Shown here one piece after another: positions 13,080 through 57,601 of a stretch of DNA of 64,000 nucleotides. The stretch comes from a virus (taxonomy: Duplodnaviria; Caudoviricetes), in the IMG/VR virus record IMGVR_UViG_3300033498_000048, positions 128,001-192,000 of that record; one strand, written 5' to 3'. The notes under the pieces were generated by a model that was not told the DNA's origin, did no database searches, and saw nothing but the letters and a program-made list of their open reading frames with translations. Each line of letters begins with the position of its first letter. Positions within the stretch are counted from its first letter, which is position 1. Both the position numbers and the translations under genes were made by a program.

Positions 13080-13849
13080 TATAAATTTACTCCACCCAAT
13101 TCAAGTTTCAATGACAACTTACTTTGTTGCCTGTTGTAAGGTTTACTCATTTCATAGTACCCTGATGTATCATAATCACATAATTTCAAATTGAAGTTTG
13201 GAAGCTCAAGTCTATTGATGTGAAATGAATCAGTGTAGTATTTGGCATATAATAACTGAAAATCAGCGATTGTCAATTTCTTATTTTTAATACCACTTAA
13301 AAACAATTCATCCCTAAACATGATTTTCAAGTAATCAAAAAAACAATGTTTTCTATTCCTATCAACTCTTTTTGGAGTAGGTGGATTATCAATTGACATC
13401 GTGAATACATCAATGCTATTGATAATATCTTTAATACCAAGTTCTAATAGACTAATTTTATGAATCACGGATTGTGACCAACCATATTCTGAGTGTGAAC
13501 GTAACCAATCTAGTATGTCAAAATTATTTACGTCAAATTCACGGTCTAACATTTTATTGGAATACACCCATGTGCCGTTATTGTATATTCCACGAAATTG
13601 GTCATATTCAATCAGGTGTAATACTCCATCTGGAACCACACAGTAACCTTGTTCAATTAGCAATCCAATACCATGATTAAAACTTTTAATTTGTTTAACT
13701 TTAACTCCAGTAAAGTTATATTCAGCATACACATCATCATCAACAATTCTCAACCAATATACTTTACTATATGGATGTAAGAATTGTTCAATAGACATAA
13801 CTGGCAGTCCAACCATCTTCTTAATAATTGGAATTTGAAATTTTTTCAC
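13079..13849 (-). CDS. Hypothetical protein
   Basis: 256-aa ORF with GGAGG RBS, coupled. Confidence 0.75.
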   Translation of the reverse strand: MKKFQIPIIKKMVGLPVMSIEQFLHPYSKVYWLRIVDDDVYAEYNFTGVKVKQIKSFNHGIGLLIEQGYCVVPDGVLHLIEYDQFRGIYNNGTWVYSNKMLDREFDVNNFDILDWLRSHSEYGWSQSVIHKISLLELGIKDIINSIDVFTMSIDNPPTPKRVDRNRKHCFFDYLKIMFRDELFLSGIKNKKLTIADFQLLYAKYYTDSFHINRLELPNFNLKLCDYDTSGYYEMSKPYNRQQSKLSLKLELGGVNL

Positions 13850-14139
13850 TATACCTCCATTTTATACAACCAATCAACAGGAATATTAGCATTAATGTCG
13901 TAACAACAGCCTTCAAACTGAAATTCAACGACATCGGTATAATCTCGTACAATTTTAGTTCCAGCAACAGTAACAATTTTTTCAAACTCGCCATCCTCTG
14001 GAGTTTCAACCACAATTTTTATCTTATCTCCTTTTTTTATGGAAGTTGCTTTTTTGTAACCTTTTCTTCTACTGATTTTGCTTCCACTCTTAACTTCAAT
14101 AACATTTTCATACAATATGGCTGAACTTGAATGCGACAT
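13849..14139 (-). CDS. Hypothetical protein (SH3/KOW-like small beta domain possible)
   Basis: 96-aa ORF, first gene after a perfect sigma70 promoter. Confidence 0.65.
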   Translation of the reverse strand: MSHSSSAILYENVIEVKSGSKISRRKGYKKATSIKKGDKIKIVVETPEDGEFEKIVTVAGTKIVRDYTDVVEFQFEGCCYDINANIPVDWLYKMEV

Positions 14140-14169: not shown

Positions 14170-14198
14170 ATTATAGTTATTTGAAATTAAGATGTCAA
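14170..14198 (-). promoter_or_regulatory. Sigma70-like early promoter TTGACA-17-TATAAT
   Basis: Perfect consensus, 42 bp from repeat array 1. Confidence 0.8.
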
Positions 14199-14239: not shown

Positions 14240-14790
14240 AATCAATGAGTTAGCACTTACAGGTTGGTGTTAGTTATATAACTGTTCCAAGTGCTAACTC
14301 ATTGATTCGTATAGTGTAATTAATTGTTATTAACTATCAATAGGTTAGCACTTACAGACATTAAGTAATTATAGGGACGCTTCAAGAGTGTATCATTCAT
14401 TGTCAATTATTAAAATCAATGAGTTAGCACTTGCACTGGTCTTATAATTAACTAACTGTTCCAAGTGCTAACCACTTGTTTAATATACATAAAGTTAATT
14501 AGTATAACTATCAATAGGTTAGCACTTATAGACTGGTATTAGTTATATAACTGTTGCAAGTGCTAACCTATTGATAGTTGGTTGTCCAAACCATTGAGGT
14601 GTAGTTAAAAATTGGAACAAATATGTAACTAATTGTGTTGAATAGCTAAAATCAATGAGTTAGCACTTACAGCGTGGTATTAATTACTTAATTGTTCCAA
14701 GTGCTAACCTATTGATTTAATTGAGAATGGTACAAGGTAATAATATCAACGACTTAGCACTTGGACGGTGTTATTAATTATCCAAGTGCT
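14240..14790. repeat. Inverted-repeat array 1 (68-bp units; IHF-box arms)
   Basis: Complete units start at 14240, 14414, 14509 and 14650, e.g. AATCAATGAGTTAGCACTT-N30-AAGTGCTAACTCATTGATT; partial units at 14335 and 14744. Confidence 0.95.
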
Positions 14791-14824
14791 ATTTTTATGA
14801 GTGGAACATTTCCACAATTGAATA

Positions 14825-16138
14825 CTAAAGACTAATCGAACTAACTTCGTTTAAATACATTTTATTAGCTGTTGTATTCAATAACGATTTTAGTTCTTTT
14901 TCTTTGTTTTTTAATGAGGTGTTTAAATCTGCTATTTTATCTTTTGTTAGGTTGTAAATAGGCATTGATAACAACTTATCTACATTAATGAATCCATTGT
15001 TCGATAATAACTCTACCAATTGTTTTTTAGACAATTCTTTAAATGTTGTTGCATTTTCAATGTAATAATTGATAAATCGTATTTTTTCTGAAATATCTGC
15101 TATTTCAGCAGTAACTATATCAATTAACTTTAAACGTCTCAATTCATAAATGTGAAGTCGATACTTAACAAAATAATCAACAATTTCTGCTGCCGAATTA
15201 AATACTTGAAGTTTAGAATTAACATTCCACAATGTTAAGTTTTCAGTGTCTTTTGATACCAACTTAAATGTATTATAAATGGTATCAATGTCCATATTAG
15301 TAACATTCCTAGGGCATTTAATTTCAATATTAAATCCATCTTCTGAAGAATCATCATCATAATCTTTGATTACATCTGTTTCCTTCAGTTTATTAAGGAT
15401 TGTTTTAATATCATCAAGGAACATTCCAATTGGCAATTCGGTAATACTAATTGTCGTTGAATTAACAATTTCCAATTTACCTTTGAAAATCCATTGGTTT
15501 TGATTTTCACCTTTTAATATTTGTCCAATGAAATTCTTATACCAAGGAATCAACTCAATTCTAGGTGTACCATTTAATATAGCAATAATATCATTTTTTA
15601 CATCAATTGGATTATATGCTAACACTTTACTGGCATATCCAGTACCAATTCCATGTGTTCCATTAATTAATACAACTGGTAATATTGGAACATAGAACTT
15701 TGGCTCAATTTGTTGGTCATCTTCATATAGATGTTCCAATATCACATCATCTGTACTATTAAATAATGTATTAAATGATGGAGATAACTTTGTGAAAATA
15801 TACCTATGTGCTGCTGGAATTGGTGATAATCTTGAACCAAATTGCCCTATAGGTTCGAGTAAATTGATATTGTTTGAACCAGCAAAGTTTTGAGCTAAGT
15901 TACAAATAACACCACCGATTCCTGCTTCTCCGTGGTGGTAAGCTGTTTCAGCAGCAACGGATGAACACAATTGTGCTACTTTGATTTCTGTGTTGGTTCT
16001 TTTTTTACAAGTGTGGACTATTTTACGTTGTGTTATTTTTAATCCATCTATGACATTTGCAATACTCCGTTGTGAATCATATATCGTGTATGGTTTATGT
16101 TGTGTTTCAAAAAACTCATTAATTGTTATCTTTTGCAT
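14825..16138 (-). CDS. 52: Type II DNA topoisomerase, GyrA/ParC-like subunit (T4 gp52)
   Basis: DGLKITQRK, YHHGE, GQFGSR...AAHRYIF (catalytic RY), NGTHGIGTGY. Confidence 0.95.
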   Translation of the reverse strand: MQKITINEFFETQHKPYTIYDSQRSIANVIDGLKITQRKIVHTCKKRTNTEIKVAQLCSSVAAETAYHHGEAGIGGVICNLAQNFAGSNNINLLEPIGQFGSRLSPIPAAHRYIFTKLSPSFNTLFNSTDDVILEHLYEDDQQIEPKFYVPILPVVLINGTHGIGTGYASKVLAYNPIDVKNDIIAILNGTPRIELIPWYKNFIGQILKGENQNQWIFKGKLEIVNSTTISITELPIGMFLDDIKTILNKLKETDVIKDYDDDSSEDGFNIEIKCPRNVTNMDIDTIYNTFKLVSKDTENLTLWNVNSKLQVFNSAAEIVDYFVKYRLHIYELRRLKLIDIVTAEIADISEKIRFINYYIENATTFKELSKKQLVELLSNNGFINVDKLLSMPIYNLTKDKIADLNTSLKNKEKELKSLLNTTANKMYLNEVSSISL

Positions 16139-20387: not shown

Positions 20388-20670
20388 AATCAATGACTTA
20401 GCACTTGGAACAGTTATATAATTAATACCACGATGCAAGTGCTAACCTATTGATTTTGTTATATTGTAATCATTCTCAATTAAATCAATAGGTTAGCATT
20501 TATGAGTATTGGTTAATTAGTAAAGTGTTCCAAGTGCTAACTCATTGATTTATAGTAATTGACGATAATAGCTACTATATCAACAGGTTAGCACTTACAA
20601 CTGTTATATAACTAAGACCAATCTGCAAGTGCTATCTTGTTGATTCTTAATAATTGACAAGATAGCACTT
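20388..20670. repeat. Inverted-repeat array 2
   Basis: Complete units at 20388, 20483 and 20578 (95-bp period, 30-bp cores), plus a partial arm near 20652. Confidence 0.95.
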
Positions 20671-22827: not shown

Positions 22828-23184
22828 GTGAAACCAGCAACTATTAACTTAACAATATATCAGGGTTCAACTTTTACTAAAGATTATATTTGGAAAGTTG
22901 GTGAACCAGCAATTCCAGTTAATTTGACTGGATATACAGCTAAGATGCAAATCCGCGAAAAAATATCAGAAGCTACTATATTAATCGAATTATCAACAGA
23001 AAATGGTAGGATATTAATTCCTAATCCAATTGAAGGACACTTTTCATTTTTAATATCTGCTACAGATACGTCAATGTTAAGTTTTAAAAATGCTGTATAT
23101 GATTTAGAGTTGTATTCTCCATCTGGGGTTGTTCGCAGATTGTTTGGTGGGTCAGTAACATTATCTCCAGAGGTTACTAGATGA
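22828..23184 (+). CDS. Virion-associated Ig/BppU-like protein (TIYQGSTF...YTAKMQIR...VYDLEL...RLFGG.VTLSPEVTR)
   Basis: Pattern typical of small phage tail/baseplate adaptor proteins; late promoter upstream. Confidence 0.65.
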   Translation: MKPATINLTIYQGSTFTKDYIWKVGEPAIPVNLTGYTAKMQIREKISEATILIELSTENGRILIPNPIEGHFSFLISATDTSMLSFKNAVYDLELYSPSGVVRRLFGGSVTLSPEVTR

Positions 23185-23753
23185 CAGATGAATTACTCGT
23201 TTCCAATCAAGATGGGATTCAAGTAATTGTACTATCTGGTATTACCGATACCATAACAGAAACTGAAGTTGTTACAAATGCAATCGAATCTACTATTGAA
23301 AGTGGAATTGTTACAATATATGACGATAAACTAACTTACATTGAATCTAAAGATGACCCTCCAACGTTAATTAATACAATTGGTGTTGGTCCACCTGGTC
23401 CACCTGGTCCACCTGGTCCAATTGGAGATGGTGTATTTCCACCACAATATTTCAACATCAATCAGAATACTACCAGTTATATTTTAGATACTTTAGATGT
23501 TTTGAACCATAGAACGTGTAAATGGATAGTCAATATCAGTGACGATTATAATACTAGATTTAGATGCTGTGAAGTTTTAATGTTAAATCACAATTCACAT
23601 TGTTCATTTGTTGTTTATAGTAGTATGGGGAGTCAAATACAACATAAAATTAATATAGAATTAATTGGAAATGACATTAATATGACACTTGATAATTATG
23701 AAAATGTTGATTTGAAAGTTGGTGTTATTAGGATTGGAATGTTATTTGTTTAA
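23181..23753 (+). CDS. Virion fibre/decoration protein with short collagen motif
   Basis: GPPGPPGPPGP followed by a C-terminal beta domain (LD...RTCKWIV...E.LML.H). Confidence 0.6.
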   Translation: MTDELLVSNQDGIQVIVLSGITDTITETEVVTNAIESTIESGIVTIYDDKLTYIESKDDPPTLINTIGVGPPGPPGPPGPIGDGVFPPQYFNINQNTTSYILDTLDVLNHRTCKWIVNISDDYNTRFRCCEVLMLNHNSHCSFVVYSSMGSQIQHKINIELIGNDINMTLDNYENVDLKVGVIRIGMLFV

Positions 23754-33879: not shown

Positions 33880-34652
33880 TATCAACAGGTTAGCACTTGC
33901 AAACTGGTATTAGTTATATAACTGTTCCAAGTGCTAACTCATTGATTATGTTTAAAAATATAAAACCACCACTAATACCAGTTTGCAAGTGCTAACCTGT
34001 TGATATTGGATGACCATTCTTGTTCAATTATTAAGAATCAATAACATAGCACTTGGAACAGTTTACTAATTAACCAACACCTGTAAGTGCTAACTCATTG
34101 ATTCTTAAACATTCAGTCTAATTAGCACTCGTGGAACTGGTCTTAGTTGTATAATCGTTGCAAGTGCTAACTCATTGATATTATTAGGACACAATCATTC
34201 CGAATTAAATCAATAGGTTAGCATTTACAGATTGGTCTTAGTTATATAACCGTTGATATTTGATTACCATTCTTGTCAATTATGAAGAATCAATGAGTTA
34301 GCACTTGCAACGTGTTAGTAATTACCTAACCGTTATAAATGCTAACTAACTGTTTATTAAGCATTTTCACCATAACCTAACTAAATCAATGAGTTAGCAT
34401 TTATATGGGTGTCTTAATTATATAACGGTTGCAAGTGCTAACCTATTGATTCTTAATACCAACATAAAACTCCAGTATGGACTGATATTAACCATTACTA
34501 ATTCGTTAATATTACCAACGCTTCTAGTCAATTATTTTGAATCAATGACTTAGCACTTGGAACGGTTATATAATTAACTAACTGCTCCAAGTGCTAACTT
34601 ATTGATTTAATTGAGTTTGTGTGATTGTATATGAATCAATGAGTTAGCACTT
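33880..34652. repeat. Inverted-repeat array 3 (largest)
   Basis: Complete units at 33880, 34036, 34288, 34384 and 34540; orphan or degenerate arms at 33987, 34162, 34208 and 34634. Confidence 0.95.
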
Positions 34653-36626: not shown

Positions 36627-38108
36627 TCAATCTATTTCATCTTCAATAACATCAATTGGAACAATACTACTTCCAAATAAATTCGCAGTTGATAATTTAA
36701 AATTGTCAATTACCCATTTTTTAAATGTTGGATTGTCTAATATCGGTGTCCAAAATTCAGAACAATCCGTTTCTTTTAATCTCCATTTTTTAGCTTCAAT
36801 TTCACCTGTATCAAATACTCTTGAATACCAACCTTGGACTGGTTTAATAACAAGCCCTGATTGTAACCCTAACTCAATCAATCCAGTGTAAGTCGATAAT
36901 CCACCATCAAATTTAACTGTAATCGGAATCTTTGATTTCTCTATAACTACTCTTGATTTCTCAACATTTACCACAAAATTATGTCCAATTAATTCTGTTC
37001 CATCTTTTTCTTGTTGTCTACCGATAATGAAAATTGTATCTGCGGAATAATATGGACCCGTATTATGCGTTACAACTCCATTTTCCAAAATATAATGTTC
37101 AGCTTCATAGACTGAAATATCATAAACTGGCAATTTACCAACTATATTAATTGATTTGACAATCCTTCCACTTGTTTTACCAATATACCCATTTGTTGTA
37201 ACTGGAGTATCAATTTTTAAATTTTTTGCCTCTGTCCAACCATCAATTGTTAAAAATGAATGATTGTTTGAACAAGTGACACTATATCCATCATCAAATT
37301 GAATCTCATAACATTCTGGAATGCCAATATGTAACGTATCAGGATTCCATATTGAAGTAACAACTTTATCACCAATCGCAGTTCTAACCTGTTCACCAAC
37401 TTTAATGTTTTGTATTTCTTTAAGAGTGTTGTCCGACATTTGAAGCTTTGTTCCCGACACTAAACAACCTCCACTAACAACTGCTTTTGAATAGATTTCC
37501 TGTGTTTGATAGATGTGTGCCACGATAACACATGGAATGTTCTTTATTTTCATATATGGAGTAATAATTCTAAAAAATGATTTAATCTGTTTAGCTCTGC
37601 TCATATCAGCAACAGATTTTTCATCTTTAGCATCATCAACTTCTTTTTTGGATGCTATATTTCCGATTGAGTCCACAACAAAGATTACTTTATCACCCCG
37701 TTCAATTCCTTCTAATTGGTTTACCATATCGAACTTCAATTCTTCCAAATTCAGGATTGGAATGTGCATTACTCTTCCCATATCAATTTCCAATGAATTG
37801 AAATAGTCTTTAGAAGTACCAAACTCACAATTGTAAAACATTAATACAGACTCAGGATATTTGTCCATGTATTTTTTAGCCATTATCAGGGAAAACATTG
37901 TTTTAAATGATTTCGATGCACCTGCTAATATTGTGATTCCAGGTGAAAAGCCACCATCGACATCTCCCGATAACAAAATATCGAGAGATGGAATCCCAGT
38001 GTGTACGACTTCAGTTTGATTAAAAAACTTAGAGTCCTTTAATATTTCCGTTGCTTTAATTGTTGAATTGCTTTTCAATCTGTCCATCAAGCTTGTTTTT
38101 GTAGCCAT
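36627..38108 (-). CDS. uvsX: UvsX RecA-like recombinase containing a mini-intein
   Basis: GASKSFKT, VVDSIGN.ASKKE, KSVADMSRAK, SGG|intein|TGPYYSAD. Confidence 0.95.
   Translation of the reverse strand: MATKTSLMDRLKSNSTIKATEILKDSKFFNQTEVVHTGIPSLDILLSGDVDGGFSPGITILAGASKSFKTMFSLIMAKKYMDKYPESVLMFYNCEFGTSKDYFNSLEIDMGRVMHIPILNLEELKFDMVNQLEGIERGDKVIFVVDSIGNIASKKEVDDAKDEKSVADMSRAKQIKSFFRIITPYMKIKNIPCVIVAHIYQTQEIYSKAVVSGGCLVSGTKLQMSDNTLKEIQNIKVGEQVRTAIGDKVVTSIWNPDTLHIGIPECYEIQFDDGYSVTCSNNHSFLTIDGWTEAKNLKIDTPVTTNGYIGKTSGRIVKSINIVGKLPVYDISVYEAEHYILENGVVTHNTGPYYSADTIFIIGRQQEKDGTELIGHNFVVNVEKSRVVIEKSKIPITVKFDGGLSTYTGLIELGLQSGLVIKPVQGWYSRVFDTGEIEAKKWRLKETDCSEFWTPILDNPTFKKWVIDNFKLSTANLFGSSIVPIDVIEDEID
37062..37466 (-). 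mobile_element. Cis mini-intein in UvsX (135 aa, Cys1...His-Asn, Thr+1)
   Basis: CLVSGT (block A), TCSNNH (block B), VYDISV...VTHN|T (blocks F/G); no endonuclease domain. Confidence 0.92.
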
Positions 38109-40298: not shown

Positions 40299-42647
40299 TT
40301 ACTTCATCAACTTGATAAACTTGTCTGTACTAATAACTTCAGTTGGTTTAATTGAAATGTTTTTTCCATCACGGTTTACTATTAATGAATGGTCTGCTGT
40401 ACAAATAATTTCAGTTCCATCTACTGTAATTTTAAACAATTCTTTTTTAACTTTGTGAGCCATAACGTATTTTATTGGATTTACAACTAATTTCCCGTTA
40501 ATATCTACTCCATACGCATTTAGATTAAATACTGGTTTAACGATATTGTCAATTTCATTTTTTACTGGAATTGTATTAATTGAATCAAATAAATTCCCTA
40601 TTTTCATATCACCACAATCCATTGAAATTACCGTATCACCAACAACGGAATCTGTATCGGAATAGATGACATAATCAACTCCATTAGTTTTAAACCTAGA
40701 ATTTAAAAACTCGTTTAATCGTTTAGCAATGTATAAGATTACAAGTTGTCCAGTTAGTGTAATACCTTCCGCCATATCATTTGAAGAATATCTGAATCCA
40801 GCGTTTCCACAAGACCCATAACACGAGTTGAGTGCTAATTTTAGGGCTATTTGCATAGCTTCGTGGAATGCCGAATCAGTATATAACTTTTCCAATTCGT
40901 TCTTCAATTCAGCATCCATTAAGTTTGCTAATTTAGTAGTACCACGTTTAGACAATTCGGTTTTAATGAGTTCTATTTTTTTATCAGCAGCTATTCGCAT
41001 CGTTTTATGCGAAACACGGTCATTAAACATTTCAGTGATAATTTCTGGAATGATACCAATTTTATCTTTTGAAAACATTGCCCCATTAGCTGCCATAGCA
41101 CAATTCAGCTTTTTTAAGTGTGCTGTATCTACATTTAAATCAATTAAATCTTCCACTAAATTTCCAGTAGCAGTCTTAACTAATGTTTCATAACTCACGT
41201 TTAACATTCGCATTATTGATGGATATAATGATGTTAAATCAAATGCGACAACCCATTTATATAAACCTGGAATTGGCTCTTTAACAAATGCTCCAGCATA
41301 TCCATCACTTGATTGTTTTTGTGGAGCGGGTGGGATTTGTATTCCTTTTTTTCTAAGTGCGTTATAAACTAAACATTCCCAGTTCTTGACTTGTCCAAAT
41401 ATTTCAGATTGTTTTACTTTACACATATACGCGATTGTTAATCCAATGAAAATGTAATTTAACTTCGCGTCCAACTTTCTAGGCAACCTAACGTCTTGGG
41501 TGTTATATTCTACAAATTTATTATAAGCATACTCTTTAATGTAATTATCAATCGTGAAATAAACATCAATCAATTCATTAGCATTTAGTTTATCCAAATC
41601 AACATTTAATATGTTAATATCAAATTTAGTTGTTTGGATGTAATCTAATTCAATTGGTAATTCTTTTCCATATTGTTGTTGGACACGTTCTTTAAATCTA
41701 CCAATTTTTAATATTTCTAAATCATTGTTTGATTTTAATGCTTTTTGGGATAGTATTCCATTATATAAATTGTGTAATGAACCAAATTCTGAATAATCAA
41801 CCTTCCGTTCTGATAATTCGACTAATGCAATATTATCTAATGAATAACTCCCAAGCTTTTGGGTACTAAACTTTTTATACATTTCGATATAGTCGTATGG
41901 AGAAATACCCAATATTTTATATCCCTTTTTTAAATTATCTAATTCAATTTCGGATATAACATTTCTAGCTTTTTTGTAAAATGGACTCAATCGGTCAGCC
42001 CACTGTTTACCCAATACTTTTTTTATTCGATTGATGATATAGGGAATATCAAATTCATTAATATTGAATCCTGTTATAATATCTGGTTCTATTTTAATCC
42101 ACTCATTAACGAATGTCATTAATAAATGCCGTTCATCGTCACATTCAATATATAATTCATCTGGATTACAATGACCAGTAAATGTTTTAGTTCCAATCGT
42201 TATATAGGTTGTATTATGTGCAAACGTTGCAAGTGTGATACTTGTTACTTCATTATCAGCAACATCTGGAGGTGAATATCCAAGTACAACATCAAATGCA
42301 ACTTCAATATCAAAGTTTAAAATGTTAATCTTTGTTATATCAAACTTTATTAAATCTGGATATTCAGTTGCAATGAATTGATGTGCTAAACTTGTTTGTC
42401 CGTGTATTTGACGATAGTTTCTGTTTTTGCGAATGTACTCATTAGTTTCTTTGACACTATTGAATCGTATGCTTGATAGTTTTTCACCCATAAATCCAAT
42501 TGCATCACCTTTACCCCTGTCACTTGGTACATATAAAACAAATGGGTAATTTTCTAATATTTCAGTCTGTCTTTTTTCTCCATCAAAAAACCTATGGAAT
42601 ATCTTATTTTCTTGCACTTCAACCGATGTGTAAAACTTTTCTGGCAT
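40299..42647 (-). CDS. 43: DNA polymerase gp43 N-terminal fragment ending in split-intein IntN
   Basis: FDIEV (ExoI), GFNINEFDIPY, FDLTSLYPS (motif A), KLALNSCYG (motif B), YSDTD|S (motif C). Confidence 0.95.
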   Translation of the reverse strand: MPEKFYTSVEVQENKIFHRFFDGEKRQTEILENYPFVLYVPSDRGKGDAIGFMGEKLSSIRFNSVKETNEYIRKNRNYRQIHGQTSLAHQFIATEYPDLIKFDITKINILNFDIEVAFDVVLGYSPPDVADNEVTSITLATFAHNTTYITIGTKTFTGHCNPDELYIECDDERHLLMTFVNEWIKIEPDIITGFNINEFDIPYIINRIKKVLGKQWADRLSPFYKKARNVISEIELDNLKKGYKILGISPYDYIEMYKKFSTQKLGSYSLDNIALVELSERKVDYSEFGSLHNLYNGILSQKALKSNNDLEILKIGRFKERVQQQYGKELPIELDYIQTTKFDINILNVDLDKLNANELIDVYFTIDNYIKEYAYNKFVEYNTQDVRLPRKLDAKLNYIFIGLTIAYMCKVKQSEIFGQVKNWECLVYNALRKKGIQIPPAPQKQSSDGYAGAFVKEPIPGLYKWVVAFDLTSLYPSIMRMLNVSYETLVKTATGNLVEDLIDLNVDTAHLKKLNCAMAANGAMFSKDKIGIIPEIITEMFNDRVSHKTMRIAADKKIELIKTELSKRGTTKLANLMDAELKNELEKLYTDSAFHEAMQIALKLALNSCYGSCGNAGFRYSSNDMAEGITLTGQLVILYIAKRLNEFLNSRFKTNGVDYVIYSDTDSVVGDTVISMDCGDMKIGNLFDSINTIPVKNEIDNIVKPVFNLNAYGVDINGKLVVNPIKYVMAHKVKKELFKITVDGTEIICTADHSLIVNRDGKNISIKPTEVISTDKFIKLMK
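40302..40649 (-). mobile_element. Split intein N-fragment (IntN, 116 aa, Ser1)
   Basis: SVVGDT (block A with Ser1), CTADHS (block B T-x-x-H), stop after KFIKLMK. Confidence 0.93.
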
Positions 42648-44327: not shown

Positions 44328-44715
44328 CCTCTAACAATAATGAGTCCAAATAGGACTCATGTTGTTTTAATATTGGCACAACTTCTTTTGCTTTAGTGTA
44401 TGAATAACCATACACTCGCTGTATTTTATCAATTAATACTGTATCGTCAATATTTTTATTCCACTTGGAATACCGTTTTCGTTTTGGTATAACATGGAAT
44501 AAAAATGTGTATTGCATTTGAATGTCCATTTCAAATCTGATATTCAATTCATTCACAAGTAAAGCCGTATCTCGATATTGAGATAGTGCTTTATTAATCA
44601 TAAATGGATTATACTCAGCAGTTAATTGTTCTTCAATTAATTCTGTTTTTCCATTTGTGATATTGTTCACAATATCAAATAAACCTAAAGATGGTTGGTT
44701 GTCCAATGTACTCAT
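44299..44715 (-). CDS. 62: Clamp loader small subunit gp62
   Basis: YNPFMINKALSQ..DT...VNELN, KRKRYSKW, YGYS..KA.EV. Confidence 0.9.
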   Translation of the reverse strand: MSTLDNQPSLGLFDIVNNITNGKTELIEEQLTAEYNPFMINKALSQYRDTALLVNELNIRFEMDIQMQYTFLFHVIPKRKRYSKWNKNIDDTVLIDKIQRVYGYSYTKAKEVVPILKQHESYLDSLLLEGGKVNKKIK

Positions 44716-46106
44716 TTGAACTCCAAATCCCGCATTAACTCGGTTAGCATTGCAACTATATTCAATTCTTTATCGGAAACAAAGTTTGACTTATAATCAT
44801 AATCTGATAACGTTAGTACCAATTGTGGTAACGAACTTGGAATAACATAATCTGGGGCTTTAAGATAAATTGCTCTTGATAATGTCATTTGGGAATTGTC
44901 TAAATTACTAACAACCCATTTTCTAACCTCGTTCCATTTACTGGGGTCTCTTAAATATGTAAACAACTCATCAATATTAGCATCTGATAAACTTGTTAAT
45001 ACGAGTTCGTCCAACCTGTTATTGACCATTGATAATTGTTGTAACGTTGTTGTGATTTTTCGCATATCTGGAAAATGCGTTGTTATTACCTTCGCAACAA
45101 CATTCCTATCATATTCAACTCCCTCATGGTCTAATATTTCTAGCATTCTTTTTTCAAGTGGGAGTATCACTTCCATTTTTTCAGCTTTAGTAAGTGCAAA
45201 GTCAACAACTGCACACCTACTTTTTAATGGACCCATAATTCTATTGCTAAAATTGGCAGTCAATATAAACCTACAGTTTGCACTATAGGTTTCCATAAAG
45301 TTTCTTAATGCAGGTTGTGTGCTATTACAATTGTGAGCTACTACACCATTTTCCAAAATGAAATTGTGATTATCATCATTAGTAGTCAAATCATAAACTG
45401 GTAACATTCCCAATGATTCCATCGACACAATGGTTTTTGTTTTTCCATTGGAATCAACAAGCTTATCACCAATTTTGATACCATCCTTTTTTTCTGATAC
45501 TCCACAATATCCATTTATTGATTCAATGGTGTAAAAAGGATGGTCTTTTGTGCAATACATTCTTGAATAATCATCAAATTGTACAATGTACACTTCGCCT
45601 ATTCCCGACTTGAATACGAATGCTTCTGCTGTGTATTGTTCACCTGTTGTTGTGTTATATGATAATATATTAACTGTTTTATCATAAATTGAATCAAATG
45701 ACTTTAATTCTGGAACACCATCTATATTCACAGTGTAAATATGTTGGTTTCCAGCAAAACAATTTAAATAATCGGCTTCATCTAATAATACTACTTTATA
45801 TCCACCTCTATTCTTCATACTAACGGTGCTAGCATAACGTTCAATCGTAGTTCGGAGCGTATCAATGTTCCCATCTTTCGAGGCATTGATTTCCAGTAAG
45901 TCAATGCCCATATCACTACACAACGCTCTTGGAATTGTGGTTTTTCCAACACCCTGATAACCAGTGAACAACATATTTGTTATTTGTCCACTGTCAATAA
46001 TAGCTTGAAAATAGTTTTTTAATCTCGATGGTAAAATAACATTAGCCATCGTTCTTGGACGAAACTTCTCAGCCCAAAGTGGTTGATTCGGAGTAATATC
46101 CAACAT
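44712..46106 (-). CDS. 44: Clamp loader large subunit gp44 containing a mini-intein
   Basis: WAEKFRP, GYQGVGKTT, LDEADYLN|intein|CNSTQPALR, LKSRC, FPDMRK. Confidence 0.95.
   Translation of the reverse strand: MLDITPNQPLWAEKFRPRTMANVILPSRLKNYFQAIIDSGQITNMLFTGYQGVGKTTIPRALCSDMGIDLLEINASKDGNIDTLRTTIERYASTVSMKNRGGYKVVLLDEADYLNCFAGNQHIYTVNIDGVPELKSFDSIYDKTVNILSYNTTTGEQYTAEAFVFKSGIGEVYIVQFDDYSRMYCTKDHPFYTIESINGYCGVSEKKDGIKIGDKLVDSNGKTKTIVSMESLGMLPVYDLTTNDDNHNFILENGVVAHNCNSTQPALRNFMETYSANCRFILTANFSNRIMGPLKSRCAVVDFALTKAEKMEVILPLEKRMLEILDHEGVEYDRNVVAKVITTHFPDMRKITTTLQQLSMVNNRLDELVLTSLSDANIDELFTYLRDPSKWNEVRKWVVSNLDNSQMTLSRAIYLKAPDYVIPSSLPQLVLTLSDYDYKSNFVSDKELNIVAMLTELMRDLEFK
45330..45761 (-). mobile_element. 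Cis mini-intein in gp44 (144 aa, Cys1...His-Asn, Cys+1)
   Basis: CFAGNQ (block A), CTKDHP (block B), VYDLT...VAHN|C; no endonuclease domain. Confidence 0.92.
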
Positions 46107-51598: not shown

Positions 51599-52187
51599 AA
51601 TCAATAGGTTAGCACTTGATACCGTTAGGTAATTAATATATCGTTCCAAGTGCTAACCAGTTGATATTTGATTACATTCTTGTCAATTATTAAGAATCAA
51701 TGAGTTAGCACTTACATTGGTCTATTAATTATATAACAGTTACAACTGCTAACCTATTGATATTATTAATACTACATCACATCCAATTAAATCAATGACT
51801 TAGCACTTACAACGGTTATATAATTAATAGACCAATGCAAGTGCTAAGTCATTGATTCTTGATAACCGATATTATGTCCAACCAAGTGTTAGCTATAACT
51901 GTCAATTAAATATAAATCAATAAGTTAGCATTTGGAACAGTCTTATAATTAGTAAATGGTATCAAGTGCTAAGTCACTTGACTTAAAATGAATTAGACAA
52001 CTTCACTATTGGTTCTAAAATGATTAGAGCATTACCAATCATTCTCAATTTTAACCGATTTACCGTTGGTACTAAGAATCAATGACTTAGCACTTGCATT
52101 GGTCTGTTAATTATATAACCGTTGTAAGTGCTAACCTATTGATTTTTATTCACTGTCAATTAAATATAAATCAATAAGTTAGCATTT
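51599..52187. repeat. Inverted-repeat array 4
   Basis: Complete units at 51599, 51695, 51790, 51915 and 52077; orphan arm at 52169; a roughly 48-bp direct repeat at about 51897 and 52152. Confidence 0.95.
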
Positions 52188-52223: not shown

Positions 52224-52252
52224 TTGACTATTTTTTGATTCGATAATATAAT
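52224..52252 (+). promoter_or_regulatory. Sigma70-like promoter TTGACT-17-TATAAT
   Basis: Immediately after array 4, upstream of uvsY. Confidence 0.7.
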
Positions 52253-52279: not shown

Positions 52280-52705
52280 ATGGAATTGGAACAAATACAA
52301 ACCGAAATACAACTTGATAGTGTATTAAATGAAACTAAGCTTGATACTGAAAGTTTAAAGATTCCTATGTTACATTCAAAATGGTACAACTATTTAATAT
52401 TTGAAGCTCAGACATTAAAAAGGGTTGAACGAACATTTAACAAAGTAAAAAAGGCTAGAATTGAATATTATTTAGGGAAAGCTCCAGATGAAGTATATAA
52501 AGAACACCCTAAACCATACAATGTGTTAAAACAGGATTTAGAGTTGTATTTGAGTGCTGATGATGAATATCAAGTTCAACAAGAGTTGATAACTAACCAA
52601 CAAATCAAAATTGATTTAATTGAGCAGTTTTTAAAGCAAGTTTCGCAGCGTTCATTTAATATAAAAAACGCAATAGATTTTATGAAGTTTAAAAGTGGAT
52701 TGTGA
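52280..52705 (+). CDS. uvsY: Recombination mediator UvsY
   Basis: ESLKIPMLHSKW, EYYLGKA...VY, YL.AD, R.FNIKNAIDF.KFKSG. Confidence 0.92.
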   Translation: MELEQIQTEIQLDSVLNETKLDTESLKIPMLHSKWYNYLIFEAQTLKRVERTFNKVKKARIEYYLGKAPDEVYKEHPKPYNVLKQDLELYLSADDEYQVQQELITNQQIKIDLIEQFLKQVSQRSFNIKNAIDFMKFKSGL

Positions 52706-56674: not shown

Positions 56675-56892
56675 TGTCAACAAGTTAGCACTTAGGACAC
56701 ATTAAGTTATTCATTGTCAATTATTATAAATCAATAGGTTAGCACTTACATGGGTGTATTAATTATATAACTGTTCCAAGTGCTAACCTATTGATAGTGT
56801 TATCATTCATTATCAATTATTATAAATCAACAAGTTAGCACTTGGAACGTGTTAGTAATTACTTAATGAGTGTAAGTGCTAAGTCATTGATT
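56675..56892. repeat. Inverted-repeat array 5
   Basis: Complete units at 56729 and 56825 (96-bp period); partial arm at 56675. Confidence 0.93.
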
Positions 56893-56896
56893 GTTA

Positions 56897-57601
56897 CTAC
56901 TTGCTTAATTTATATATTCCATTAACAAGTGCTAATACTAACTTTACATTTGTAGACATGGGCCAAGGGAAAGTAAGTCCAGTTAATTTACCAGTAGCAA
57001 ATAACAACAGCATTCGAGTTCCTTCTGGTCCACCAAATAATGTTGGTAAATCATAATCACCCTTTACTGCTTTGAGTGCAGATGATAAATCCATATCATA
57101 ATTTGCGTTACCAGTTGATGTACCACCATCATCAAGGAACATCCAAAGCAATAAGCCACCAACAACAACCCCACCAACTTTTTTCAGTGCTGGATGCTTA
57201 ACTAAAAAATCTTGTAATTTTTTTAATTCATTATCTGTCCATTTAACAACTTTTGTTGACGCAACATAATCAGCAATCTTTAATTGTAAATCGGTATATA
57301 ATTGGAATCCAGCTTTTAATTTACTGTATAACATACCAAGACTAAATTTGATTTCCCTAAAAAACTCAAATATTTTTTTGTTTTTACAGGCAACTAATAA
57401 ATCTTGAACACGAGTCTTGGAAATCTGTGCCAATTCTACAAAAAACCAATATTTTTCTTTAATCGCGTCCGTCAATTTAACAAGCTCAAACTCAGTTAAA
57501 AGTTTACCGTTTTCCATCTCAAGCAATCTAATCGCTTCAGAATATGACGCAAAATCTTGGTCATATTCATATTGTTCTAGGAACATCTCAAATGTTAGCA
57601 T
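56897..57601 (-). CDS. Late hypothetical protein, probable head-internal protein
   Basis: TATAAATA at 57626-57633; N-terminus MLTFEMFLE. Confidence 0.65.
   Translation of the reverse strand: MLTFEMFLEQYEYDQDFASYSEAIRLLEMENGKLLTEFELVKLTDAIKEKYWFFVELAQISKTRVQDLLVACKNKKIFEFFREIKFSLGMLYSKLKAGFQLYTDLQLKIADYVASTKVVKWTDNELKKLQDFLVKHPALKKVGGVVVGGLLLWMFLDDGGTSTGNANYDMDLSSALKAVKGDYDLPTLFGGPEGTRMLLLFATGKLTGLTFPWPMSTNVKLVLALVNGIYKLSK

Follow-up and report, generated by a model that had tools for sequence, protein, structure and literature searches.

The genome of a T4-like jumbo phage was found to carry 35 intergenic arrays, about 3.4% of its length, of a 66-bp unit with twofold symmetry, and our preferred explanation, to which we give an even chance, is that these are BIME-like arrays of candidate double-stranded sites for a dedicated, probably phage-encoded, putative protein. 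The anatomy of the units, their copy number, spacing, intergenic position and association with promoters, the lack of selection for pairing of their arms, and their partial conservation in one relative, were read directly from the DNA, and it is from them that we infer protein binding, the identity of the binder and a regulatory role of the units. The main value of the result is corrective, in that the fit of the repeat arms to the consensus of the integration host factor (IHF) is real, yet it is not shared by all arms and is not what forms the conserved core of the element.

The record, from a microbial-mat metagenome, is 305,782 bp long, with direct terminal repeats and a G+C content of 31%, and no RNA-sequencing run was found to contain the phage. 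The window, that is the whole stretch of 64,000 nucleotides whose coordinates are used below, corresponds to bases 128,001-192,000 of that record. Its genes are T4-like and encode a split-type topoisomerase II, a family-B DNA polymerase, UvsX, UvsY and UvsW, as well as a clamp loader, a gp46-like SbcC, a gp41-type helicase and gp5. The closest cultured phages are those on Stenotrophomonas, Xanthomonas and Ralstonia, with a protein identity of only 37-45%, and the cyanophage marker psbA is absent from the phage. No protein of the HU/IHF family (PF00216) was found in the phage by a profile search, nor were homologues of MotA or AsiA, and the four families of transposase and recombinase genes that were searched (Y1/RAYT, PF01797; TnpB; DDE_3; serine recombinase of the resolvase type) gave no member.

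Repeat arms were searched with the pattern ATCAA-N4-TTAGCACTT, in which the N4 was left free, and were accepted with at most one mismatch, or two if they were inside an array. The results of this search showed that there are 217 arms in the genome, while the reversed genome gave none at up to one mismatch. The window contains 45 of them, the number that a preliminary description had estimated (about 45 sites per 64 kb), and the eight arm variants quoted in that description were all found there. The IHF consensus WATCAANNNNTTR occurred 52 times in the window, against 15.0 +/- 4.0 times in shuffled sequences (maximum of 25). The statement that every arm is a consensus IHF box was correct for 41 of the 45 arms of the window but is overstated, because the exact fit extends to only 166 of the 217 arms genome-wide (76%) and the remaining quarter miss it. 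Even at positions 14240-14717, where the repeats had been described, eight exact boxes are accompanied by one degenerate arm (14463-14480, AAACAA). A fit to the consensus has a chance of about 1.2e-4 per position in window shuffles, which gives about 0.002 for a 19-nt arm, and the fit of the arms is unlikely to be due to chance. Outside the arms, matches to the consensus were not enriched (55 versus about 71 expected). A solitary arm-like match with one mismatch, located at 41568..41586 on the plus strand inside the DNA polymerase gene, is probably a chance match or a relic.

In order not to judge conservation on positions that the arm pattern itself had fixed, we re-anchored the units on the TTAGCACTT..AAGTGCTAA dyad alone, which gave 92 units (184 arms) in the genome and none in the reversed genome. 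The exact consensus fit was found in 138 of these 184 arms (75%). The W position is an A or a T in 97% of them (A 73%, T 24%), the following A-T-C-A-A are conserved at 95, 89, 93, 97 and 93%, respectively, and the major allele at the four N4 positions reaches 79, 49, 67 and 79%, respectively. The earlier observation that TCAA and TTA are nearly fixed was therefore upheld, ATCAA and TTA being 89-97% conserved even when the units are located by the dyad, and since the dyad-anchored units retain this alternation of conserved, relaxed and conserved segments, the pattern is real and not an artefact of the search. The GCACTT that had been called invariant is the most invariant part of the arm, with G12, C13 and T10 each present in 217 of 217 arms, and it behaves as would be expected of a site for a dedicated protein, as had been suggested for a second protein.

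These results bear on a reading in which the arms are genuine sites for host IHF that are maintained by selection, with IHF bending the outer end of each arm and a second protein holding GCACTT. Such sites may serve to organise the phage DNA, to stimulate the early promoters next to them or to sequester IHF from the host. This reading is compatible with our preferred one if IHF is a co-factor of the dedicated protein. The exact fit of three quarters of the arms and the low chance level of such a fit speak for it, as does the conservation of ATCAA under unbiased anchoring while the N4 is relaxed. The central T of the TTR, a base at which substitution lowers the affinity of IHF by a factor of more than 100 (bioRxiv 10.1101/382655), is present in 217 of 217 arms and the upstream flanks of the arms are A/T-rich, as this reading would have it. 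Against it stand the quarter of the arms that miss the consensus, the lack of any excess of boxes outside the arms and the fact that the phage encodes no HU/IHF-family protein of its own. We regard the selection of the arms as host IHF sites as unlikely on balance, and we are equally doubtful that IHF binding to the arms serves as a functional, lineage-specific co-factor.

Comparison of the N4 segments of the 217 arms showed that each position is essentially in one of two states (T170/C41, A109/G99, A147/G58 and G169/C43), with an information content of 0.7-1.8 bits. Six tetramers, TGAG, TAGG, TAAG, TGAC, CAAG and CAGG, account for 175 of the 217 arms (81%), so that the proposal that the middle four bases vary freely is not tenable, and the haplotypes are linked. 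The combination GG at the second and third positions was seen about five times when about 27 occurrences were expected from the allele frequencies, and a C at the fourth position never followed AG. This pattern suggests a small number of sub-families, separated by one or two mutational steps, that were copied to different places in the genome, rather than free drift at four positions. The variation is confined to the N4, as had been stated, when only the 13-nt box is considered, but not beyond the box, where the N12 segments of the core and the outer spacers are more variable. The argument leading from the N4 to selection for IHF binding is weakened, because the N4 is not free and the N12 core segments vary more than it does; in its form based on a free N4, this argument for selection fails. 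The two-state N4 with its linked haplotypes is also a point against the arms being IHF sites under selection.

The IHF-like box is only the outer part of an arm that belongs to a larger unit. This unit is 66 bp long, has twofold symmetry and reads ATCAA-N4-TTAGCACTT-N12-TAATTA-N12-AAGTGCTAA-N4-TTGAT. The core between the two arms is exactly 30 bp in 81 of the 92 dyads, and its central hexamer is TAATTA in 55 of these 81 units and TAGTTA or TAACTA, one transition away, in 17 more. The N12 segments on either side of the hexamer are not symmetric to one another. Within arrays the arms alternate in orientation with a period of about 48 bp: the start-to-start spacing was 48 nt in 81 of 86 convergent pairs (within a unit) and 44-48 nt in 47 of 56 divergent pairs (between units). 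The 217 arms form 42 clusters, 35 of which have at least two arms. The median best match of a core at another locus was 87%, and 24 of 47 outer spacers had a match of at least 70% elsewhere compared with one in shuffled controls; the cores and half of the outer spacers thus recur between loci, and the arrays are therefore mosaics of a few modules. Recurrent outer flanks preceding ATCAA are GTCAATTATTAAGA-, CTCAATTAA- and AACT-. Tandem duplication was rejected as the sole origin of the arrays, only one of them being called as a 96-nt tandem repeat, with 78% identity. A CRISPR array or solitary CRISPR repeat unit, for which direct repeats no shorter than 23 nt and separated by unique spacers would be required, was rejected as well, since the arms alternate and the spacers recur between loci.

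This geometry sets a limit to IHF occupancy. The IHF consensus occupies one half of a wrapped site of about 35 bp (bioRxiv 10.1101/382655), and outward-facing boxes of neighbouring units have a common spacer of 26-30 bp, whereas about 20 bp would be needed for each box. Because the other half of each site would fall in this shared spacer, neighbouring arms would not both be fully wrapped, and at most one of the two would be, which counts against the IHF reading. Alternate occupancy of neighbouring boxes by IHF is possible. To our knowledge, no T4-like lytic phage depends on IHF. The idea that the sites titrate host IHF and thereby affect CRISPR adaptation is speculation.

Array 1, at 14240..14792 (arrays and units are given without strand), has ten arms and a truncated last arm at 14784-14792, and lies in a gap of 685 bp that contains no credible ORF. 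It comprises four complete dyad units of 66-68 bp starting at 14240, 14414, 14509 and 14650, together with a solitary arm (14335) and a short unit (14744). The unit at 14240..14307 is representative of the family, with an arm of the form W+ATCAA-N4-TTAGCACTT, a 30-bp core with a TAGTTA/TAATTA centre and a mirror arm. Array 2 (20388..20670), with six arms and a degenerate one, lies in a divergent gap and precedes the gp5-like baseplate hub gene. Array 3 (33880..34652) is the largest in the window with 13 arms and occupies a divergent gap next to an SNase-like nuclease gene and a gp41-type helicase gene. Array 4 (51599..52187) has ten arms and is found between a tail-tube-like gene and uvsY. Array 5 (56676..56935) has five arms and a degenerate one, and is the only array called by Tandem Repeats Finder, with a period of 96 nt.

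The arrays are intergenic: 213 of the 217 arms lie outside the ORFs of a crude call, in which ORFs make up 85% of the genome. The junctions at which they are located are co-directional on the minus strand in 20 cases and on the plus strand in four, divergent in seven and convergent in four. They are concentrated in the replication module and in parts of the genome where the genes are small and on the minus strand, and long stretches of the genome outside the window, at 87-116 kb, 185-215 kb and 217-252 kb, are free of arrays. The order of elements around array 1 is typical. The gene for the topoisomerase II medium subunit (gp52-like; 14825..16138, minus strand) has its 3' end abutting the array, which is followed by a perfect sigma-70 promoter, TTGACA-17-TATAAT, at 14170..14198 on the minus strand, located between the array and a gene of 96 amino acids (13849..14139, minus strand) that it drives, firing away from the array. 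Similarly, a sigma-70-like promoter, TTGACT-17-TATAAT, is found at 52224..52252 on the plus strand, 37 nt past array 4 and directed towards uvsY. Array 4, one of the largest, is directly upstream of uvsY (52280-52705), and phage T4 has its oriF(uvsY) origin at what we take to be the corresponding place.

Intergenic sites matching at least 11 of the 12 positions of the sigma-70 consensus numbered 52 in the genome, mostly on the minus strand, and many of them are perfect TTGACA-17/18-TATAAT promoters. They look like a large set of early promoters. These near-consensus sites imply that the host RNA polymerase is of the TTGACA/TATAAT type, which we take to argue against a Bacteroidota host. Such consensus promoters and the proteobacterial relatives of the phage make a host with IHF plausible, which favours the IHF reading. 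A site of at least 11/12 was present outside the array in 13 of 28 array-bearing gaps, compared with 28 of 180 other gaps having at least 50 free bases (odds ratio of 4.7, p = 5e-4). The promoters beside arrays always fire away from the array, and their -35 hexamer is 0-91 nt from the nearest arm, a variable distance unlike that of a classical activator site. The frequent location of arrays upstream of sigma-70 promoters is likewise in keeping with IHF sites. A promoter-linked role cannot be general, because four of the 35 arrays are between convergent genes and 15 of the 28 testable arrays have no strong adjacent promoter. Two other roles were considered and rejected. A promoter within the unit or its spacer was dismissed after inspection, no pair of hexamers being found at a spacing of 16-18 bp, and so was a MotA box formed by GTGCTAA, the phage having neither MotA nor AsiA and showing no consistent -10 element at the right distance.

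Since the units are palindromic, they could also be read as RNA or single-strand hairpins, stem-loops which on read-through would stop or attenuate transcription or protect the 3' ends of mRNAs, in the mode of REP elements and of the PeSL (promoter-early stem-loop) elements of T4-type phages. Single units folded strongly as single strands, at -11.7 to -22.1 kcal/mol (z = -3.6 to -9.2), the unit at 14240..14307 giving -22.1 kcal/mol (z = -9.2) as single-stranded DNA, and with hairpins of this stability a role as cruciform DNA or RNA is conceivable. That arrays follow the 3' end of a gene and precede the promoter of the gene after it also suits this reading, and PeSLs provide a precedent in T4-like phages (PMC2839356, PMC4122927). 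Pairing between the arms, however, is not under selection. The identity of the N4 between the two arms of one unit was 0.608, compared with 0.570 for random arm pairs (z = 1.3), Watson-Crick pairing was seen in only 38-64 of 86 units per N4 position, and transition mismatches between the arms showed no bias on the sense strand (G.U 46, A.C 38; p = 0.45). With neither co-variation or compensatory change between the arms nor a strand bias of mismatches, hairpin pairing is not what has been maintained. Furthermore, there is no U-tract, only one terminator-like site was found in 7.4 kb (2.1 were expected by chance), and a comparison with Rfam gave no family match to the units, the resemblance to microRNA hairpins being below threshold. 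In the case of the seven arrays in divergent gaps, neither flanking gene would be transcribed into the array. The conserved central palindromic hexamer and the fixed spacing of 30 bp are needed by a symmetric protein on duplex DNA and are superfluous for a loop. We therefore consider the hairpin role improbable, and retain a site in duplex DNA as the preferred reading.

Relatives of the phage were sought with the topoisomerase II medium subunit as an anchor. One close relative was found, with a topoisomerase 71% identical to that of the phage, on two short ENA contigs (L146 and L147). Downstream of the same topoisomerase gene, these contigs carry two palindromes whose arms end in TTAGCACTT(G) and whose cores are 28-29 bp long, followed by TTGACT-18-TAAAAT and the next gene; the palindromes being at the same locus and followed by a promoter and a gene, the layout is conserved. 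The ten bases outside TTAGCACTT in the arms of the relative contain TTTCAAT, GGATATT, GTGAATT and GTAAATT, and none of them fits WATCAA-N4. Comparison of the two phages, which covers four arms of one relative, does not bear out the proposal that selection maintains IHF binding, as these four arms keep TTAGCACTT(G) and the 28-29 bp spacing and have no WATCAA-N4. The two lineages therefore have in common TTAGCACTT, the dyad and the spacing, and the IHF-like part of the arm is, as judged against these four arms, specific to the phage studied. The lack of a box in the homologous palindromes is a further point against the arms being selected as IHF sites.

The homologous locus has about five units in the phage and two in the relative. 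Between the two TTAGCACTT palindromes of the relative there is an ORF of 45 amino acids (L146:2639-2776), an arrangement like that of an ORFan cassette flanked by PeSLs, and the window has extra repeat units in its place. The TOPRIM_C part of the topoisomerase II large subunit is encoded by a separate gene of 252 amino acids in the relative (L146:473-1231) and lies within one ORF of 629 amino acids in the phage (window 16153-18042); the gp39/gp60-type split, as predicted from these ORFs, differs between close lineages. More distant relatives, with a topoisomerase 35-65% identical (L148-L156 and L272-L351), had no such palindromes, and their frequent 11-mers were coding tandem repeats. The gp41-type helicase, used as a second anchor, gave no relative above 54% identity.

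Wider searches were made with the arm, the dyad and the DNA of the window. A DNA search of the array and 15 kb of the window against GenBank phages gave no match. In viral contigs, the arm pattern gave single chance matches only, the dyad pattern 24 unrelated single matches and the arm version of the relative nothing, while in metagenome contigs the dyad pattern gave 114 unrelated single matches. The dyad with TAAYTA was also searched in 185,579 prokaryote species, represented by one genome each, with a single chance match, within an Idiomarina gene. No other carrier was thus found in the viral contigs, the metagenome contigs or the genomes of the 185,579 prokaryote species.

These searches bear on the possibility that the units are selfish, non-autonomous mobile DNA of the MITE or REPIN type with no phage function, in which a transposase would recognise the arms as terminal inverted repeats and the IHF-like box would serve as a co-factor site for transposition. 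The ends of IS1, IS10 and gamma-delta carry IHF co-factor sites for transposition. The high copy number, intergenic position and inverted arms of the units, and the sub-families common to several loci, are what such elements would show, as is the difference in copy number at the homologous locus. However, we saw no target-site duplications, the flanks instead extending the palindrome (AAGA/TCTT and AACT/AGTT), and the strict alternating phasing of 48 nt is unexpected for independent insertions. The four families of transposase and recombinase genes searched are missing from the phage, and the pattern has no cellular copies (the one chance match among the prokaryote genomes) and none in other viral or metagenome contigs. 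Moreover, MITEs are rare in viruses, being present in 0.01% of viral sequences (PMC11602168). Although they have inverted repeats, the units are not MITEs by the tests applied to them, and they differ from REPINs in that pairing between their inverted repeats is not maintained (z = 1.3). We regard mobile DNA, and with it a transposition co-factor role of the box, as very improbable.

Among known systems, the REP/BIME elements of enterobacteria, pseudomonads and Xanthomonas (PMC2817692, PMC3333891) resemble the arrays most in their layout: both are high-copy, intergenic and regularly spaced, alternate in orientation and have mosaic linkers that recur between loci. An association with IHF, putative in the phage, and one with a topoisomerase are further points in common, as BIME-1 elements (RIP/RIB) are associated with IHF and BIME-2 elements bind gyrase (PMC2817692, PMC3333891). 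The binding of IHF by BIME-1 (PMC2817692) counts in favour of the IHF reading. The phage family differs from them in several respects. It sits in a lytic-type phage genome, its single arm has no self-complementarity and is not a stem-loop, the palindrome needing a pair of arms, whereas a REP unit is itself an imperfect palindrome, and its IHF-like box is inside the arm and not in the linker. Its units are AT-rich and have a core fixed at 30 bp with TAATTA conserved at the centre, it shows no compensatory pairing between its arms, and it occurs in a phage without a RAYT gene (PF01797). The phage arrays are arranged like BIMEs but are not a member of the BIME family.

The PeSLs of T4-type phages (PMC2839356, PMC4122927) offer a second comparison. 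Here too there are a T4-like phage with about 50 near-consensus sigma-70 early promoters and repeated palindromic motifs at gene boundaries that are likely substrates of homologous recombination, and the ORF of 45 amino acids flanked by the two palindromes of the relative closely resembles a cassette made up of PeSLs and an ORFan. The stem-loops of PeSLs are short and G/C-rich and lie in or beside a promoter, whereas the phage units are 66 bp long and AT-rich, occur in arrays of up to 13 arms, contain neither a promoter nor a G/C-rich terminator stem, and are also found without an adjacent strong promoter. The phage units are not PeSLs.

The arms were also compared with characterised IHF sites (lambda H' and H1; bioRxiv 10.1101/382655), which they resemble in the exact WATCAANNNNTTR of 76% of the arms, the invariant central T of the TTR and the A/T-rich upstream flank. 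They differ from them in that the putative box lies within a longer conserved arm and has a two-state N4, in that the boxes are too close to one another for both to be fully wrapped and in that they are absent from the homologous elements of the relative. A further comparison is offered by sites of the P1 parS type, in which boxes for a specific protein are combined with an IHF bend, with one site per replicon and IHF at the centre. By analogy, the phage unit may be a composite site of about 70 bp in which the boxes of a dedicated protein and a bend site cooperate; unlike parS, the phage has about 100 units and its IHF-like boxes are at the outer ends.

In the mechanism that we favour, the repeat family would be specific to this phage lineage and its IHF-like box would be the outer third of the arm. 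Each unit would be a site in duplex DNA for a symmetric, sequence-specific protein or complex, probably encoded by the phage, which would make its primary contacts with the TTAGCACTT half-sites, exactly 30 bp apart, and with the central TAATTA. The outer ATCAA would provide a second contact about 11 bp (one helical turn) outside TTAGCACTT, in the phage and not in the relative, and the partner at this contact might be either a further domain of that protein or a DNA-bending protein of the host, for instance IHF. Placed at the boundaries of transcription units and often just upstream of strong early-type sigma-70 promoters, the arrays would most plausibly have a boundary, architectural or regulatory function, in which they could insulate, bend or regulate. 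As a side effect, they may serve as substrates for the phage recombination system, as has been proposed for PeSLs (PMC2839356); this is likely in view of their length as repeats and of the very active recombination of the phage.

In a bolder version, the roughly 100 composite units would together organise the phage chromosome, a phage protein clamping the TTAGCACTT dyad and host IHF bending the outer ends, which we hold to be distinctly improbable. If it were true, intergenic DNA would be folded at the boundaries of early transcription units, the free IHF of the host would be drawn down by the high copy number of the units, and the arrays would correspond, in a phage and with a dependence on IHF, to the BIMEs of bacteria. 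Bacterial chromosomes are characterised by dense, dispersed repeats of the REP/BIME type, and a phage with about 3.4% of its genome in about 100 dyad sites is unusual because mobile repeats are very rare in viruses. Whichever reading is followed, the phage provides a compact setting in which the function of such arrays can be studied, whether as transcription-unit boundaries, in DNA architecture, as recombination hot spots or in the capture of host factors.

Two minor observations were made on genes of the window. Three replication and recombination genes, those for DNA polymerase B (40299-42647), UvsX (36627-38108) and the clamp-loader large subunit (44712-46106), all on the minus strand, gave sub-threshold hits to Intein_splicing, with scores of 27.7-32.7 bits for a cut-off of 35.8, which suggests that they contain inteins. 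A perfect tandem repeat of 9 nt, TGGTCCACC, is present in 3.8 copies at 23387-23420, within the predicted ORF 23181-23753 on the plus strand.
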